Of a stretch of 35,321 bases of DNA, positions 1 through 17,629 are shown piece by piece. Origin of the DNA: a virus (taxonomy: Duplodnaviria; Heunggongvirae; Uroviricota; Caudoviricetes); the IMG/VR virus record IMGVR_UViG_648276647_000008. One strand, given 5' to 3'. The notes under the pieces were generated by a model. It did not search any database. It was not told the DNA's origin and saw only the letters and a list, made by a program, of their open reading frames with translations. How positions within the stretch are numbered: position 1 is the first letter of the stretch; each line of letters opens with the position of its first letter. Both the position numbers and the translations under genes were made by a program.

Positions 1-1747
1 CTGATGATGCTGGAACATAATCGCTATTATTTCCTGCTTTAGGATTAGCAGGGTTTCCAACAGTTATAACAGAATCAGCAGTAGCATAAGCGATACCTAC
101 TTTGACATTAGTATTCAGATCGTAACCGTAATAATCCTGCAAAGCTGTACGAATAAATGTTGCAGTCTGACCACTTAGCAATGAACGCCCTGTATCAATC
201 CCTCTCGAATCATCCCAACCACGGATAAACTCACCGCGTAAATCAGGTAATTTTAACGTTGGGTAAACCTTTGCCAGATTTGGGTACTTTTCAGAAGAAA
301 ATGCTGCTCCGTTACATTTCAGCCACCCCGTTGGCGGTGTGGCTGAGGGCCACGGAACAGGTACACCAACGGGCAGCGCCGAGCCTTCCCCCAAACCAAG
401 GTAATCAAGAACGCTCTGAATACTGGTCTTACCAAGAATGGCGCGTCCAACACTTGTCAATGCAGTTAACGCGGCACGATCAACACCTGTGAAATAAGGG
501 AGTTTATCTGCTGCTGTAGCTAGTGCCGCTAGAGCAGTGAGCGTAGCGTCTGCCGCTTGCTTTCCATTAGCCAAATCATATGCAGCCTTGACAGCTTTCG
601 GTGTGGCGGCCAGCACTTCGGACGTGCTATTGGTAGCACTGCTGAGTTGGACTATCCCTTTTTGAGCCGTGGTTGCATCCTGGGCTGTATACTTCCCGTT
701 AGCCAGGTCATATGCAGCCTTGACAGCTTTCGGTGTGGCGGCCAGCACTTCAGACGTGCTGTTAGTGGCACTACTGAGCTGAGTGATGCCTTTCGCTGTC
801 AATGAAGCTGTTGGCACACCAGTGATCTGATTCCAGGGATGTGTATGACTGGATGGTGCCTTTCCGGCTGCTAGATCGTATGCAGCTTTAACCGCTTTTG
901 GAGTTGCAGCTAATGTTTCAGAAGTGCTGTTGGTGTCGCTACTGAGCTGAACTATCCCTTTTTGTGTCGTGGTTGCATCCTGGGCTGTATACTTCCCGTT
1001 AGCCAGGTCATATGCAGCCTTGACAGCTTTCGGTGTGGCGGCCAGCACTTCGGACGTACTGTTAGTGGCACTACTGAGCTGAACTAATCCCTTTTGCGTT
1101 GTGCTTGCATCCTGCGCCGTATACTTGCTTTTCGCCAGATCGTAGGCTTTTTTAACTGCCAGCGAACTCGCAGCAACATCACTTCTGGTACTGGTTACAG
1201 AGTCTGAAATATCAATGCCGATCGTGCGGTTGATACGCTCGGATGTATCAATCATCTCTTGAGTAATGGTAGATACGCCAGCAGGGATATTCACCGTACA
1301 AACCAGCAGTTCCCCATCACCTAACTGATATGAATCGGTATAGGTTCTGGCAACAAATTCAGCTGCATGAATATGTGACGCGGTATTCACCTGATAGGTA
1401 TCTTCTCCAAGAAGGTATCTTCCCTTCAGCACAATTGCATATTTCTTGCCTGCGTTAAGTGCAAGAGATATATCCTTACGATGCTGAATAGTTACCTGGT
1501 AGAATTCACCAATATCCACTGACGCCGCGCCAGCGGTTTTATCTCCATCCACTGAGGTGATTAACAGGTTCATCCCACCGCCAGGCTTAGGCAAGAAACC
1601 AGCATAAAATCCCGGGTCAACAATTCCCCTGAATTTTCGGTTTAGAGCGGCTGACAGATATGGTTCGTGGTATTGCACATCAGCCACCAGAGCCAACGAC
1701 TCGGGTGATGGGTAAGTAACCGATGTAACAACTGTAACGTCATTCAT
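1..1747 (-). CDS. S: Tail fibre protein, N-terminal/constant part (5' partial; runs off window start)
   Basis: Minus-strand frame open from ATG at 1747-1745 (RBS-like AAGGA upstream) to the window edge. Region ~555-1200 holds about five tandem ~150-nt coding repeats translating to ...KAAYDLANGK...SSATNSTSE.LAATPKAVKAAYDLA..., the classic phage tail-fibre repeat. Sits downstream of R/baseplate genes as in P1. Confidence 0.75.
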   Translation of the reverse strand, partial: MNDVTVVTSVTYPSPESLALVADVQYHEPYLSAALNRKFRGIVDPGFYAGFLPKPGGGMNLLITSVDGDKTAGAASVDIGEFYQVTIQHRKDISLALNAGKKYAIVLKGRYLLGEDTYQVNTASHIHAAEFVARTYTDSYQLGDGELLVCTVNIPAGVSTITQEMIDTSERINRTIGIDISDSVTSTRSDVAASSLAVKKAYDLAKSKYTAQDASTTQKGLVQLSSATNSTSEVLAATPKAVKAAYDLANGKYTAQDATTTQKGIVQLSSDTNSTSETLAATPKAVKAAYDLAAGKAPSSHTHPWNQITGVPTASLTAKGITQLSSATNSTSEVLAATPKAVKAAYDLANGKYTAQDATTAQKGIVQLSSATNSTSEVLAATPKAVKAAYDLANGKQAADATLTALAALATAADKLPYFTGVDRAALTALTSVGRAILGKTSIQSVLDYLGLGEGSALPVGVPVPWPSATPPTGWLKCNGAAFSSEKYPNLAKVYPTLKLPDLRGEFIRGWDDSRGIDTGRSLLSGQTATFIRTALQDYYGYDLNTNVKVGIAYATADSVITVGNPANPKAGNNSDYVPASS

Positions 1748-2271: not shown

Positions 2272-3111
2272 TCACGCATCGCTATCCAACAGCAAATCAT
2301 CTGCGCGGGTGCGATCAAACGTAGGCGTTGCTTTCACAATAGTGCCGCCCGGCGTTGCAGTGATCGGGGCGTTAATCGACGTAACTTCAGTAAGCGAAGT
2401 TGTATCCGAAGTTTCAAACCAGCAGAATGCTTTTTCGGTATCAGAAATCTCATTCAAAGTGATCATGTCGGCCTGTTCATTTACAACAACCGACAAATAG
2501 AGCGTAAGCCCATCAAACACTATATGCAGTGGCAGTAGAGGCTTTACGAACTGATTAAACTTTCTGAGAATTTCTTCTGTAATTGCGGACTGATCTATCG
2601 TTCCAGTAATACCCATTGTCCGGGCCAGGTCGTTTATGGGAATACTGATCATTCCTCTGGAAGTCAGAAACATCTCACCGAATGTGCCGCCGGTGGTTTC
2701 CAGTGTGCTTTCTGGAATCAGGACCGTGCCATAGGGATGACGTTCAAAGTCCACCGGAGCATATATGGGATCCCATAAAACCGATATACCGTTAAATTCG
2801 CGATAAATTGTCTGGTTTATAGGGCGTTCAGTACCCTTAAAATGGATCTCATCAAACCGCTGTTGTAACAACATCGGAACGGAAGATGAATTCGACGTTC
2901 TGATAGTAAAAAACTGGCCAAGTTCATTTGTCCTGGTCTCCAGATCCTCCTTGCTCATGGAGAAAATAGACTTCCGGTTGGTAATTCGCTCCAACCATGG
3001 GTCAACAAAGGTGTCCATCATTGACTGAACCAAATCAGCCAATGATTTATAGAGCAATGACTTTTGCTTAGCTGATGTAAGCCGGTTATTAAACCAGGAA
3101 CGTTGCATCAC
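2272..3111 (-). CDS. Baseplate/tail-fibre attachment protein (P1 gp16-like, by position)
   Basis: 279-aa ORF whose start overlaps the stop of the upstream baseplate gene (ATGA-type coupling); synteny only. Confidence 0.4.
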   Translation of the reverse strand: MMQRSWFNNRLTSAKQKSLLYKSLADLVQSMMDTFVDPWLERITNRKSIFSMSKEDLETRTNELGQFFTIRTSNSSSVPMLLQQRFDEIHFKGTERPINQTIYREFNGISVLWDPIYAPVDFERHPYGTVLIPESTLETTGGTFGEMFLTSRGMISIPINDLARTMGITGTIDQSAITEEILRKFNQFVKPLLPLHIVFDGLTLYLSVVVNEQADMITLNEISDTEKAFCWFETSDTTSLTEVTSINAPITATPGGTIVKATPTFDRTRADDLLLDSDA

Positions 3112-12707: not shown

Positions 12708-12741
12708 TTAGTTACCAGAGAAATAATTTACATGGTTGCAA

Positions 12742-12758
12742 ATTGCTCTAATTATTTT
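12742..12758 (+). promoter_or_regulatory. C1-repressor-operator-like 17-mer (ATTGCTCTAATTATTTT)
   Basis: 15/17 match to the asymmetric P1 C1 operator consensus ATTGCTCTAATAAATTT as recalled; three more copies occur in the window. Confidence 0.5.
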
Positions 12759-12831
12759 ATTTTTTTAGCTTCATATGCTACATTAACTTGCTTGCGTGCT
12801 AATGCATTTTCGGTTTATCCTAAACAGGCAT

Positions 12832-12908
12832 CTTAGTAAAACGGATGCCGGGATTGGAACCCCGGATAATGCAAAAGGCGACATAGACGCCAAAAGCGTC
12901 TTTTTTTT
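12832..12908 (+). ncRNA. c4: Candidate c4-like antisense RNA (immI repressor RNA)
   Basis: Non-coding segment between promoter/operator and icd. Hairpin GCCGGG-ATTGGAA-CCCGG presents ATTGGAACC in its loop; a second hairpin GACGC-CAAAA-GCGTC is followed by T8 (intrinsic terminator). Complement GGTTCCAAC occurs ~13010 and a second ATTGGAACC copy at ~13045. Boundaries approximate. Confidence 0.4.
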
Positions 12909-13093
12909 GTGTCATGCCATCGCACAACCATACGTAGCACATAGCTCCGAGATCAATGGTAGTGCTGGCTGGGCTGCCGAAAGGCAGGCCGGTTCCCTTT
13001 TGCGCCGGTAGTTCCAACCCAGTCAGTGCTACCGCCATTGAGATTGGAACCTCACGCGGTAGCTCCTTAAATTAGCAAAAGGAGGCTGCCATT

Positions 13094-13315
13094 GTGGCTA
13101 CTATCCCTACCCCTACTCATCCTGAATTTATCTGGCGCTTTTACTCCTGCCAAAAACACCACTATCACTTCGTTATCGCAGCAACAGAAGACGAAGCACG
13201 CTCTCAATTGCCTGATGGCCCCTGCATTTTTACAGCCCGTTTTTCAACTAACTCGCGCAATTCACTTAGTTACTGGAGCCTCCCCTTCTCTGCCGACGTT
13301 CAGGGGGGTTTATGA
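13094..13315 (+). CDS. icd: Small protein overlapping the ant start (Icd-like cell-division inhibitor)
   Basis: 73-aa ORF with GTG start at 13094 and AAGGAGG RBS ~10 nt upstream; its stop overlaps the ant ATG. Size and position match P1 icd as recalled. Confidence 0.55.
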   Translation: MATIPTPTHPEFIWRFYSCQKHHYHFVIAATEDEARSQLPDGPCIFTARFSTNSRNSLSYWSLPFSADVQGGL

Positions 13316-14715
13316 AAACACCTCTCGTCACCCGTAATGAAATAGCCGAAGCGATCGCCCTGCATACTGCCTGTATGCCGACACGGGAGATCCCCGGCGC
13401 AATTGCCAACTATTTCATGATAACCAGACGTTTTTATACCCGAACAGATAAGGCTGTGATCAACAGGCTACTGATAGCCGAGATCAGGGATTATTTGATT
13501 GAACAAGGACGTCTACGTTACGCAACAGTGGCAGCAGAAATGAGAAAGGAGGCACACAGAGTGACCGGTAATAATTTGAATGTTGAAAAAACAGCACCTG
13601 TTACGTCAGCTACGCCAGCACCAGCCGTGAATATCATCCCCAACACCGGAGACACAATCGACAGCCTGACACTGTTAAAGATGGTCAATGAAGCGCGTAA
13701 GTTATGTGGGGAACCAGAGGTTCGGAACAACAAATTCATCGAAAAAATACTCGATGAGCTTGATGGTGAGCACTACACAAAAAGTGTAGTGGAAAAAATG
13801 AACAAAACATCAATGCTTGTCATAACCATGACATACAAACAAGCCCTGCGCGTTGCTGCTCGCGAATCGAAAGCGGTCCGCCGTTCGCTACATACCATGA
13901 TTCAGGCATTGGAACCTATAAATGTTGAAAATCATCCTGATGAAATTCCCGTTCTGGAATGGCAGGGAGTACGCGTCGTGACAACCGAGACTCTTGCTAG
14001 AGGGTATGGCACTACACCTATTCGTATTCAGCAGAACTACAATCGCAATGAAGAACGATTTGTAGAGGGTAAACACTTCTTTAAAATCAAAGGAGATGAG
14101 ATAAAAAGTTTGCGACTATCTTTTAGCGAGTTGCAAATTTCCCCCAAGACCAGATCCTTAATACTCTGGACCGAACGCGGAGCGGCACGCATGTCTAAGA
14201 TCGTAGACACAGAGCAAGCGTGGGCATTCTTTGAAAAACTGGAAGACAGCTACTTCCGGCAAAAAGAACAGCAACCGGTCGCAATCCCCCAGACGCTTCC
14301 CGAAGCTCTGCGCCTGGCTGCCGAGCTGGCTGAACAAAAGCAGCTACTGGAACAGAAAACCCACCAGCTAAATCAGCAGCTGGTGGCCGCAGCCCCTAAA
14401 GTCGATTTTGCCGACCGGGTATCAGTGGCTAATGGAATCCTGATCGGGAACTTTGCAAAGGTCGTTGGACTTAAGCAAAACGCCCTTTTCTCATGGTTGC
14501 GCCAGAACGGCATTCTCATGGCTTTTGGTGCGCGCAAAAACGTACCGCGCCAACAGTACATCAACGCCGGGTATTTCACGGTGAAAGAAGTGGTGCTGGA
14601 TGATGAAAATGGCTACCAGATACGGCTGACGCCCCAATTAACGGGTAAAGGCCAGCAGTGGTTAACTCGCAAGCTACTTGATGCTGGTTTGTTAAAACCA
14701 GTAGCAATAGGTTAA
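13312..14715 (+). CDS. ant: Antirepressor (Ant; AntA-like N-terminal region plus KilAC/ANT C-terminal domain)
   Basis: 467-aa ORF; C-terminal ~140 aa are ~65% identical to the C-terminus of the downstream KilA-like protein (read from the translations). Internal in-frame Met residues could give a shorter Ant2-type product. Confidence 0.75.
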   Translation: MKTPLVTRNEIAEAIALHTACMPTREIPGAIANYFMITRRFYTRTDKAVINRLLIAEIRDYLIEQGRLRYATVAAEMRKEAHRVTGNNLNVEKTAPVTSATPAPAVNIIPNTGDTIDSLTLLKMVNEARKLCGEPEVRNNKFIEKILDELDGEHYTKSVVEKMNKTSMLVITMTYKQALRVAARESKAVRRSLHTMIQALEPINVENHPDEIPVLEWQGVRVVTTETLARGYGTTPIRIQQNYNRNEERFVEGKHFFKIKGDEIKSLRLSFSELQISPKTRSLILWTERGAARMSKIVDTEQAWAFFEKLEDSYFRQKEQQPVAIPQTLPEALRLAAELAEQKQLLEQKTHQLNQQLVAAAPKVDFADRVSVANGILIGNFAKVVGLKQNALFSWLRQNGILMAFGARKNVPRQQYINAGYFTVKEVVLDDENGYQIRLTPQLTGKGQQWLTRKLLDAGLLKPVAIG

Positions 14716-16850: not shown

Positions 16851-17032
16851 TACAATCGCTGCGGGTGCTTGAGGCTATCTGCTTCAGGCATTACCCGACA
16901 AGCAGACAGAAGAAAGCCCCAGATAACATTACGCGTCCTGCAAGACGCTTAACATTAATCTGAGGCCATATCTATGCTTAGCATACGTAGATTAGCCCTC
17001 TCCCCTTTTTAGGAGCAAGGAATTTTTTACTG

Positions 17033-17629
17033 CTATGCCGCCTTTCCAATTATGGATTCAGCGACCAGAACAACCCCATGCTTACTTCGATCTGGGTGTT
17101 CACTCCATATCTCGGATTCAGGAATACTTACCCCGTCATAGCAAACACGTTCGCCGTCAAACGGGTAATACTGAGCGGCATCGGTGTCGAGGATAAACAC
17201 TTTTAGCTCGGAAGAGCGACGGGCGATGTGTTGCCAAAGAGCTTTTCCACCTTCGTATTGCTCATTATCACTGAGCAAAACAACACCAGCTTTTGAGGCT
17301 ACGGTTTCGTAAACAAAAGTAGCTAAACCGACATCCCGGACGGTTCCATCAACCACGATACCTTCAATCTGGGCAACATCGCTATCCTCCCAGAACTTCC
17401 TTACCAGTACGCCTTCAAGCTGCGGGCGACGTTGAAGTTCAAGAGTAGCGACAACCTTATGGCGCATATCACCATCGATAACAGAAGGCGCAGCCTCTAT
17501 TACAGCTGCAAATGGGGTTTTGGAATCCCATATAACCTGGTAAAGCACACCCTGGATGGTAACTCCGTCCAGGATCGAAAATCGACGAGCGACAGTACCC
17601 GGGGAGTACGACATTGGAATCACAGCCAT
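17033..17629 (-). CDS. Hypothetical protein
   Basis: ORF track gives 210 aa; ATG at 17629 (MAVIPMSY...) has an AAGGGGGA RBS. An operator-like variant (revcomp of GTAGTTTATTAGAACA, 17683-17698) lies upstream on the minus strand. Confidence 0.4.
   Translation of the reverse strand: MAVIPMSYSPGTVARRFSILDGVTIQGVLYQVIWDSKTPFAAVIEAAPSVIDGDMRHKVVATLELQRRPQLEGVLVRKFWEDSDVAQIEGIVVDGTVRDVGLATFVYETVASKAGVVLLSDNEQYEGGKALWQHIARRSSELKVFILDTDAAQYYPFDGERVCYDGVSIPESEIWSEHPDRSKHGVVLVAESIIGKAA

Follow-up and report, generated by a model that had tools for sequence, protein, structure and literature searches.

A complete P1-type immI leader with its own recognition alleles: the c4 antisense RNA, its target sites, and an upstream IsrK-like a1/b1 element

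Ahead of icd in the virus record IMGVR_UViG_648276647_000008, a short motif is displayed in a hairpin loop, recurs before the icd ribosome-binding site and is accompanied by a complementary copy in between. Which of these elements is an antisense RNA, on which sites would it act, and what is the role of the others? The window (the whole stretch of 35,321 nucleotides that was analyzed) contains a complete P1-type immI leader, with the elements in the order operator-like site, a1/b1 leader RNA, c4, a2, b2, icd, and ant (Table 1), and its a/b recognition sequence is unlike those of P1 and P7. Judged from these sequences, the region is very probably the regulatory leader of the P1-type immI operon (c4-icd-ant) of a P1-like plasmid prophage and operates by the same mechanism as in P1. 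It represents the known antisense-RNA switch that keeps the antirepressor silent in P1-like plasmid phages, of which, so far as we found, only the specificity allele is experimentally uncharacterized. In P1 and P7, the c4 RNA is cut out of the operon transcript, pairs through its a' and b' sequences with the sites a2 and b2 and blocks the translation of icd together with that of the coupled ant gene, and the a and b sequences set the heteroimmunity of the two phages. This mechanism is said to have been worked out by Citron and Schuster in 1990, Biere and colleagues in 1992, and Hartmann and colleagues in 1995. Later accounts likewise describe c4 as blocking ant via sites around the ribosome-binding site (PMC12197685; PMC8198154).

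Table 1. Elements of the immI leader and operon, with positions counted from the first letter of the window.
Feature	Position	Strand	Description
C1-repressor operator-like site ATTGCTCTAATTATTTT	12742-12758	+	Putative equivalent of P1 Oc4/Op51, by sequence similarity
Candidate leader promoter TTGCGT - 18 nt - TATCCT	12792-12821	+	Predicted from alignment; start near 12828
a1/b1 leader RNA, IsrK-like	12828-~12908	+	Hairpin 1, hairpin 2, single-stranded spacer, intrinsic terminator
a1, TTGGAAC	12854-12860	+	Loop of hairpin 2; exact complement of a'
b1, GCAAAAGG	12871-12878	+	Single-stranded spacer directly 5' of the terminator; exact complement of b'
Intrinsic terminator, AGACGC-CAAAA-GCGTCT + T8	12885-12908	+	Found by terminator scan; forms the last hairpin in the isrK model
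c4 antisense RNA gene	12952-13039	+	Rfam C4 (RF01695), 76.7 bits against a gathering threshold of 45, full model
b', CCTTTTGC	12996-13003	+	12-nt loop of c4 hairpin 2
a', GTTCCAA	13011-13017	+	Single-stranded junction of c4
a2, TTGGAAC	13044-13050	+	Target site 5 nt past the end of the c4 model; exact complement of a'
b2, GCAAAAGG	13075-13082	+	Exact complement of b'; overlaps the icd Shine-Dalgarno sequence (13079-13085)
icd, cell-division inhibitor	13094-13315	+	First ORF of the operon; GTG start, 73 aa; NCBIfam phage_ICD_like, 52.8 bits
ant, antirepressor	13312-14715	+	467 aa; Pfam ORF6N and ANT/KilAC domains; DNA match to annotated P1/P7 ant1

The repeats are real and not the product of chance. 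The motif ATTGGAACC occurs exactly on the + strand at 12853-12861, where it fills the 8-nt loop (AUUGGAAC, 12853-12860) of the hairpin at 12849-12864, and again at 13043-13051, just as a sequence-only reading of this DNA had located a loop-presented copy (~12853) and a second direct one (~13045). For the complement that it placed at ~13010, the 7-mer GTTCCAA is indeed present and exact, but the literal GGTTCCAAC is absent, positions 13010-13018 reading AGTTCCAAC. All these copies lie, as claimed, between the operator-like site and the ribosome-binding site of icd. The motif shows no overall enrichment in the window (12 occurrences with at most one mismatch versus 9.4 expected), and the significance of the repeats resides in their arrangement and not in their frequency, since none of 20,000 flank shuffles yielded together all four complementarities of a' and b' to the flanking sequences, each of which alone arises in 0.5-1.2% of them. 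A third exact copy of ATTGGAACC, at 13908 inside ant, was considered as an extra c4 site and rejected, since its presence does not follow the c4 allele: it is found as well at a locus whose 'a' allele is of the P7 type, although this stretch of ant is common to only a few loci.

A scan of the whole window with Rfam places the C4 and isrK families side by side on the + strand, and it is the second of the two elements that is c4, because the complement GTTCCAA lies within it. This RNA has an MFE of -46.4 kcal/mol (z = -5.46), a stability reached by none of 200 shuffled sequences, and its MFE fold is the Rfam consensus, with a long closing stem, two inner hairpins, and a single-stranded junction. 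By comparison with the annotated 77-nt c4 of P1, the mature RNA is predicted to span ~12958-13036 (79 nt), and its end would come from excision out of a read-through transcript and not from the terminator at 12885-12908. The a2 site has the same position as the annotated a2 of P1 and lies in an 8-nt loop when the leader is folded in isolation; the annotated P1 b2 is likewise found just 5' of icd. The layout of a c4-type antisense RNA in the leader of its own operon, which the sequence-only reading had recognized, is thus borne out by the Rfam match, the exact complementarities and the icd-ant genes downstream, and to it must be added a second set of sites that had escaped that reading, b1, b', and b2 (GCAAAAGG at 12871 and 13075, CCTTTTGC at 12996), of which b2 covers the icd ribosome-binding site.

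What does not hold is the identification of c4 with the first hairpins and their terminator (~12832-12906), according to which the loop ATTGGAACC would act on the downstream copies and repress ant. One can plausibly see in this element a terminated RNA of ~80 nt that displays the motif in a loop, and downstream of it there is one complementary site, at 13011-13017, but that single site with which it can pair sits inside the 76.7-bit C4 element. The a1 and b1 of the first hairpins repeat the sequences of a2 and b2 instead of complementing them, and an RNA of the same sense as these sites cannot pair with them beside the icd ribosome-binding site. Moreover, the annotation of P1 labels the homologue of the upstream element as a1/b1 and the downstream element as c4, and the homologous short RNA of the Gifsy-1 prophage activates antirepressor translation. 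We consider a repressor role for the first hairpins extremely unlikely. The terminator probably does set the 3' end of a small RNA, as had been suggested, of ~80 nt (12828-~12908), but this RNA carries a1/b1 and not c4; by its sequence, it is the homologue of the 'putative a1/b1 target sites' annotated in P1.

The upstream element matches the full isrK model (RF01394), including its terminator hairpin and U-tail, at 12828-12906 on the + strand with 58.3 bits (gathering threshold, 50). Hairpin 1 (12828-12848) adjoins hairpin 2 (12849-12864), b1 begins 6 nt past the latter, and the terminator stem (12885-12901) is followed by a run of eight T. Its context is also that of isrK, with c4 45 nt downstream on the same strand and then icd-ant. 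With the c4-a1b1 model (RF03163) the score is only 18.1 bits (E = 0.037 when 451 nt are searched), under the gathering threshold of 46.7, even though the register is correct (12815-12868) and the layout is that of the motif, namely two adjoining hairpins 5' of c4, a1 in the second loop and b1 3' of it. P1 and P7 show the reverse: their upstream elements, with which that of the window can be aligned, reach 51-55.5 bits with c4-a1b1 and a sub-threshold 35-44 bits with isrK at the same place, whereas those of the window type are above the isrK threshold and below that of c4-a1b1. Among 15 variants of the element, compensatory changes affect 6 of the 12 hairpin pairs.

Upstream of the a1/b1 element, the operator-like sequence ATTGCTCTAATTATTTT matches the annotated P1 operator AATGCTCTAATAAATTT at 14 of 17 positions and is a candidate C1 binding site; the modules of JL22 and RCS47 keep TTTGCTCTAATAAATTG at the aligned place. 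The candidate promoter aligns with TTGCGC-N17-TATGCT in JL22 and RCS47 and is placed, relative to the a1/b1 element, as the promoter P1c4 (P51b) annotated in P1. It falls under the threshold of the promoter scan, which reports a weaker TTTACA-17-AATTAT at 12727-12755, overlapping the operator; between the terminator and c4 (12909-12951), the same scan found no separate c4 promoter. Downstream of c4, the Shine-Dalgarno sequence AAGGAGG of icd (13079-13085) lies 8 nt 5' of the GTG start, and the start of ant overlaps the stop codon of icd (ATGA), an overlap common to P1, P7, and the window. From position 13121 onward, the DNA of icd and ant is 95-96% identical to that of P1 and P7, whereas in megablast the sequence of the leader and c4, through position 13120, does not resemble P1 or P7. 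This leader is 92.5% identical to that of D6, 87.6% to that of JL22, and 85.2% to that of RCS47, and it matches 339 plasmid records, mostly from E. coli and Salmonella, with an identity of at least 99% in 21 of them (that of pFORC64.1 is 99.4% identical). The a/b allele of the window is common.

The annotated P1 record (AF234172) lists, in order, Oc4, the promoters P2c4 and P1c4, a 'putative a1' of 7 nt, a 'putative b1' of 8 nt, a c4 of 77 nt, a2, b2, icd, and ant1. Both P1 and P7 (AF503408) follow the same plan as the window element for element: b1 is followed by a terminator-like hairpin and its U-run, the sites have equal lengths (7 nt for a, 8 nt for b), and the c4 fold is the same, hairpin 2 holding b' in its loop and the junction holding a'. 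They differ in the sites themselves, the a allele being TTGGAAC in the window, TTGACAG in P1, and TTAGCAG in P7 and the b allele GCAAAAGG, GTTAGTGA, and GATTGTGA, respectively. Unlike in P1 and P7, b2 overlaps the Shine-Dalgarno sequence directly in the window, where ant is also longer. The c4-icd modules of D6, JL22, and RCS47 have the same architecture and leaders 85-92% identical to that of the window, nearly invariant outside the recognition sites, which change together. Thus, D6 and JL22 have the b allele of the window but an a allele, TTGAGAC/GTCTCAA, that differs at all three sites (a1/a'/a2 being TTGGAAC/GTTCCAA/TTGGAAC in the window and TTGAGAC/GTCTCAA/TTGAGAC in D6, JL22, and RCS47), whereas RCS47 differs in both a and b at all three sites each, its b1/b'/b2 having switched together to GTCAAAGG/CCTTTGAC/GTCAAAGG. 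In JL22 and RCS47, this module adjoins pacB, precedes a Roi-type antirepressor and is the second module in the genome.

We extended this comparison to 90 related loci overall, with 80 loci encoding Icd relatives taken from IMG/VR and two non-P1 phages added to the allele table. Alleles were called from nhmmer anchors and explicit complementarity searches, since a MAFFT alignment of the c4 sequences of P1/P7 and of the window type shifted the 3' strand by 1 nt. An isrK-like element and c4 both lie 5' of icd in 86 of 86 sequences, which comprise 30 distinct leader variants. The table, with the two non-P1 phages, contains 6 a' alleles and 10 b' alleles, which form 14 combinations, some of them reassorted (the P1 a occurs with the P7 b, for example); the pair found in the window, GTTCCAA/CCTTTTGC, is common to 16 sequences. 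Both a2 and b2 are fully complementary to c4 (by Watson-Crick or G-U pairs) in all 16 allele sets, a1 is fully complementary to a' in 14 of the 16, and b1 pairs with b' at 7-8 of its 8 positions in every set, counts that were reached in none of 10,000 permutations. The two exceptions for a1, L012 and L014, form five Watson-Crick pairs and one G-U pair with their own a' and contain one mismatch, so that a perfect match of a1 is not obligatory in nature; by their sequences, they look like recombinants in which the upstream element was swapped. For the leader, these data demonstrate the anatomy, the family matches, the complementarity of the sites and their co-variation.

The co-variation of a1/b1 with c4 speaks for the importance of their pairing. 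One could suppose instead that the upstream copies are a functionless remnant of a duplication of the target sites, given that the P1 record calls a1/b1 only 'putative' and that two natural variants tolerate a mismatch in a1. This is very unlikely: a1 tracks a' through 6 alleles and b1 tracks b' through 10 while the flanking stems stay constant, a behavior that the permutations did not reproduce once; both hairpins show compensatory changes; the element is present in 86/86 loci and in unrelated phages; and its homologue in Gifsy-1 is functional by demonstration (PMC4825925). The natural allele series is strong comparative evidence that the a1/b1 sites, long 'putative', are functional.

The c4 region raises a different question, since positions 12956-13075 are also open as a 39-aa reading frame that might code for a real 'Ash family' protein, instead of or besides an RNA. 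The frame scores 33 bits with Pfam Phage_ASH (cut-off 26), an 'ash family protein' is annotated by RefSeq in near-identical plasmids, and in Gifsy-1 the start codons of the equivalent frame, orf45, contribute to antirepressor activation (PMC4825925). Against a protein stands the variability of the product, as the frame that opens at the same AUG encodes 14 aa in P1, 31 in P7, 39 or 41 in others, and a fusion with icd in yet others; a real protein is unlikely because the reading frame is not conserved. In addition, the changes between alleles within this ORF are those that RNA pairing requires, the annotated 5' end of the mature P1 c4 falls inside its AUG, and the nucleotide sequence of orf45 is reported to be conserved but its amino-acid sequence variable (PMC12197685). 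We regard a genuine Ash protein at this place as improbable.

Outside the P1-like phages, too, isrK, C4, and an antirepressor gene follow one another in this order, and the a and b sites match. In phiV10, TL-2011b, and two Klebsiella prophages, matches to isrK (75-80 bits) and c4-a1b1 (40-46 bits) are followed, 25 nt past isrK, by a C4 match (66-78 bits) and then by the antirepressor gene, with a1/a' and b1/b' matching. The same layout occurs in Gifsy-1, a phage otherwise unrelated, where an isrK match of 79.3 bits coincides with a c4-a1b1 match of 48.1 bits, above the gathering threshold, and precedes a C4 match of 69 bits. Gifsy-1 shares with the window the terminated small RNA, of the same isrK family, the C4-family RNA, a2, b2 over a Shine-Dalgarno sequence, and the antirepressor. 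It differs in being a lambdoid prophage without icd, in which b2 covers the Shine-Dalgarno sequence of the antirepressor itself (orf45-anrP), and in its alleles, UUGGCGU and UCACCG. When a collection of genomes was scanned for the a1 hairpin of IsrK, no Salmonella genome was among the hits, most of which were chance matches in GC-rich genomes.

Gifsy-1 makes it possible to compare the a1/b1 element with an experimentally studied RNA base for base. When residues are counted from the +1 of IsrK (L162 position 34316), the bases at C18, G28, and G31, which were mutated in the IsrK paper, agree with those given there. The a1 site corresponds to U26-U32 (UUGGCGU), which holds G28 and G31, and a' to A158-A164 (ACGCCAA), which holds C159 and C162. 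The pairs G28:C162 and G31:C159 have been validated by experiment and are needed for the activation by IsrK in trans (PMC4825925), and they are exactly a1:a' pairs. Of the other residues, A107 marks the AUG with which orf45 first opens, and this coincides with the AUG conserved at the 5' end of c4; G114 and C175 pair within the closing stem of c4. Downstream, a2 (UUGGCGU) is followed by b2 (AUCACCGGAGG), which overlaps the Shine-Dalgarno sequence of the antirepressor. Because the validated pairs and the AUG map base for base, IsrK corresponds, at the level of sequence, to the a1/b1 element, the ~80-nt processed STnc1160 to c4, and orf45 to the 'ash' ORF.

Antirepressor translation rises 139-fold when short IsrK is provided in trans (Hershko-Shalev 2016, PMC4825925). 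It is in Gifsy-1 alone that an RNA of this Hfq-binding family has been shown to accumulate as a short, Hfq-bound species and to activate the antirepressor in this way. The authors of that study explain the Gifsy-1 system by the translation of orf45 and alternative folds and not by antisense repression by c4; they call IsrK a structural homologue of SeqA, and their comparison is restricted to P4 seqA/CI, with P1 unmentioned (PMC4825925). A 2025 review gives IsrK and c4 separate entries (PMC12197685), Rfam keeps isrK outside its C4 clan, and in the papers that we examined the P1 and IsrK literatures run separately. In favor of the sequence-only reading, it may be said that Gifsy-1 IsrK is a terminated small RNA acting within the leader of the operon from which it is made, at a site complementary to itself, even if what it does there is to activate antirepressor translation and not to repress it (PMC4825925).

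From the work on P1 and Gifsy-1 we infer how the switch of the window may function as regards transcription, promoter use, terminator efficiency, c4 processing, repression, and the role of a1/b1. Transcription would start downstream of the C1-operator-like site, and the leader would be made first, with a1 in a hairpin loop, b1 single-stranded and the intrinsic terminator at its end. Terminated transcripts would yield an IsrK-like RNA of ~80 nt, and those reading through would contain c4, which, by homology with P1, would be excised (by RNase P at the 5' end) as a three-helix RNA of ~79 nt. The sequences a' (GUUCCAA) in the junction of c4 and b' (CCUUUUGC) in the loop of its hairpin 2 would then pair with a2 and b2 in the mRNA of the same operon and, because b2 covers the icd Shine-Dalgarno sequence, the translation of icd would be blocked. 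The translationally coupled ant would be switched off too, via lost coupling and polarity, as in P1; the prophage would stay repressed, and a phage entering with the same a/b type would be silenced too.

In this scheme, the a1/b1 RNA, which shares the sense of the target and can pair with c4 alone, most likely competes for the a' and b' of c4, tuning or relieving the block both as the short RNA, in trans, and as part of read-through transcripts, in cis. The supplement of Weinberg 2010, citing Citron & Schuster 1990, includes the proposal that a1/b1 compete with a2/b2 for c4 and thereby permit ant expression. When c4 is cofolded with either the a1/b1 RNA or the target leader, the ddG is about -3 to -4 kcal/mol and only the ends pair, a result that we set aside as uninformative, MFE calculations being blind to loop-loop contacts. 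Part of the Gifsy-1 evidence is at odds with pure competition, as mutations of a1 in cis raise the basal translation of the antirepressor (PMC4825925, Table 1D); a simple cis decoy predicts no such rise, so that the role of a1/b1 is probably more complex than competition alone.

This leads to a serious alternative or addition, in which a1/b1 would act mainly in cis or co-transcriptionally, either as a silent a1/b1:a'/b' lock in read-through transcripts or because the binding of c4 to nascent a1/b1 alters termination in the manner of P4 CI and seqA, with autoregulation of c4 and ant. The position of b1 directly 5' of the terminator, with whose U-run it pairs in the MFE fold, would suit such a role, as would the wild-type Gifsy-1 transcript, in which a1 and a' are paired in cis in the inactive 'structure A' and a1 mutations in cis raise expression; the analogy with P4 seqA/CI was raised by the IsrK authors themselves (PMC4825925). 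It is less easily reconciled with the finding that short IsrK in trans is sufficient for the 139-fold activation, for which a1 is required (PMC4825925), and with the MFE fold of the whole leader of the window, which contains no cis a1:a' pairing (MFE being a weak guide here). A predominantly cis role is, in our judgment, appreciably possible though not probable, and it is compatible with competition in trans. Returning to the latter, we tentatively propose, as a reading that we rate only slightly below even, that the a1/b1 element of P1-type immI operons, including that of the window, is an IsrK-type trans-acting 'anti-antisense' small RNA that counters c4, and that specificity is a three-part code (a1b1, c4, and a2b2) whose parts change in concert and are orthogonal where two modules share one genome. 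Its two components differ in strength: the structural equivalence of IsrK, STnc1160, and orf45 with a1b1, c4, and the 'Ash' ORF of P1 is established here by sequence correspondence, and the trans action may also take place in P1-like phages.

Two other phage systems offer partial parallels. The immunity system of P4 resembles the window in having a small RNA processed from the leader (CI) with complementary sites up- and downstream (seqA and seqC). P4 CI acts by premature transcription termination, P1 c4 by blocking the translation of icd. The sar RNA of P22, like c4, is a small RNA that limits antirepressor synthesis at the translational level (PMC12197685), but it is read off the strand opposite its target, whereas in the window the regulator and its target share one strand and one transcript, and their pairing is confined to two short sites.

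Taken by itself, the feature in the window matters little, being the immI switch that one would expect in a P1-like plasmid prophage, with parts that Rfam already contains. Its annotation matters more: here and in hundreds of RefSeq plasmids, the c4 gene is annotated only as a CDS for an 'ash family protein', likely a mis-annotation, and the RNA genes and their target sites are unannotated. By-products of the comparison are the co-evolution of a1/b1 with c4, the mapping of IsrK, STnc1160, and orf45, and the orthogonal alleles of genomes with two modules. The allele series ties a1/b1 to the experimentally studied IsrK small RNA and makes the competition hypothesis of 1990 directly testable; if the anti-antisense reading is true, IsrK, STnc1160, and orf45 of Gifsy-1 would be the same things as a1b1, c4, and the 'Ash' ORF of P1. 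Finally, the a/b alleles (here TTGGAAC/GCAAAAGG) predict mutual immI immunity among P1-like phage-plasmids, a prediction that bears on how these elements, many of them carriers of resistance genes, reside together and spread.

The conserved 5' AAUGG of the c4 RNA contains an AUG from which a 39-aa reading frame runs (Table). This frame is matched by Pfam Phage_ASH at 33 bits, and near-identical plasmids in RefSeq have it labelled as 'ash family protein' with c4 left without annotation; orf45 of the Salmonella prophage Gifsy-1 occupies the same position. The length of the frame opened by the conserved AUG is 14 aa in P1, 31 aa in P7 and 39-41 aa in others, and in still other relatives it continues into icd as a fusion. 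The 'ash' frame looks like an RNA gene read in translation. Further downstream, within ant, lies a third exact copy of ATTGGAACC, which is probably just coding sequence, since a locus whose 'a' allele is of the P7 type has it too.

Features located in the window and in related loci
Feature	Position	Strand	Details
39-aa 'ash' ORF	12956-13075	+	start at the c4 AUG
ATTGGAACC, third copy	13908-13916	+	within ant
hok/sok-type antitoxin RNA	16863-17037	+	Rfam sok, 86.3 bits; 3' of the ant-kilA region
tRNA gene 1	34022-34094	+	Rfam tRNA, 74.5 bits
tRNA gene 2	34100-34172	+	Rfam tRNA, 72.9 bits
Second C4 match, phage D6 (L003)	474-553	+	40.2 bits, below gathering 45
Second a1/b1 element, L032 (one IMG/VR contig)	2523-2601	+	~1.1 kb 3' of icd

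In the interval between a2 and b2, GCGGTAGC (13056-13063) complements the 3' strand of the c4 closing stem (13028-13035); it is kept within the leader family of the window, and the family of locus L015 has GCGGTGG instead. When the leader is folded in isolation, the icd Shine-Dalgarno sequence pairs with CUCCUU (13064-13069), located upstream of it, in the stretch 13058-13090. Together, this predicted pairing and the complementarity of GCGGTAGC to the closing stem suggest that the unprocessed transcript may adopt alternative structures. The GGAACC present in both a1 and a2 (12856-12861 and 13046-13051) also complements GGTTCC in the 5' strand of the second c4 hairpin (12991-12996), a possible second pairing register that is specific to the a allele of the window.

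The window also encodes a sok RNA and two tRNA genes (Table), the latter forming an adjacent pair as in P1-like genomes.

Several P1-like genomes, JL22 and RCS47 among them, carry two a1b1-c4-icd modules each. In all four contig pairs checked (L017/L054, L021/L047, L023/L071 and L042/L073, each pair on a single contig), the paired modules have different a alleles as well as different b alleles, as expected if co-resident systems must avoid cross-talk. A second c4-icd region has been reported in D6-like prophages (PMC6799933). The sub-threshold C4 match in phage D6 sits ~550 nt upstream of its main c4, and the second a1/b1 copy in L032 is possibly the beginning of a further module.

Two IMG/VR contigs, L012 and L014, are natural variants in which a1 is mismatched to its own a' and a2, pairing through five Watson-Crick pairs and one G-U with one mismatch. 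Both look like recombinants that exchanged the upstream element relative to c4, and both are candidate cases of altered regulation. The window itself has a mosaic junction at ~13121, inside icd: sequence 5' of this point is D6/JL22-like, and from 13121 on it shares 95-96% identity with the icd-ant of P1/P7. Recombination inside icd seems to have swapped the specificity module.
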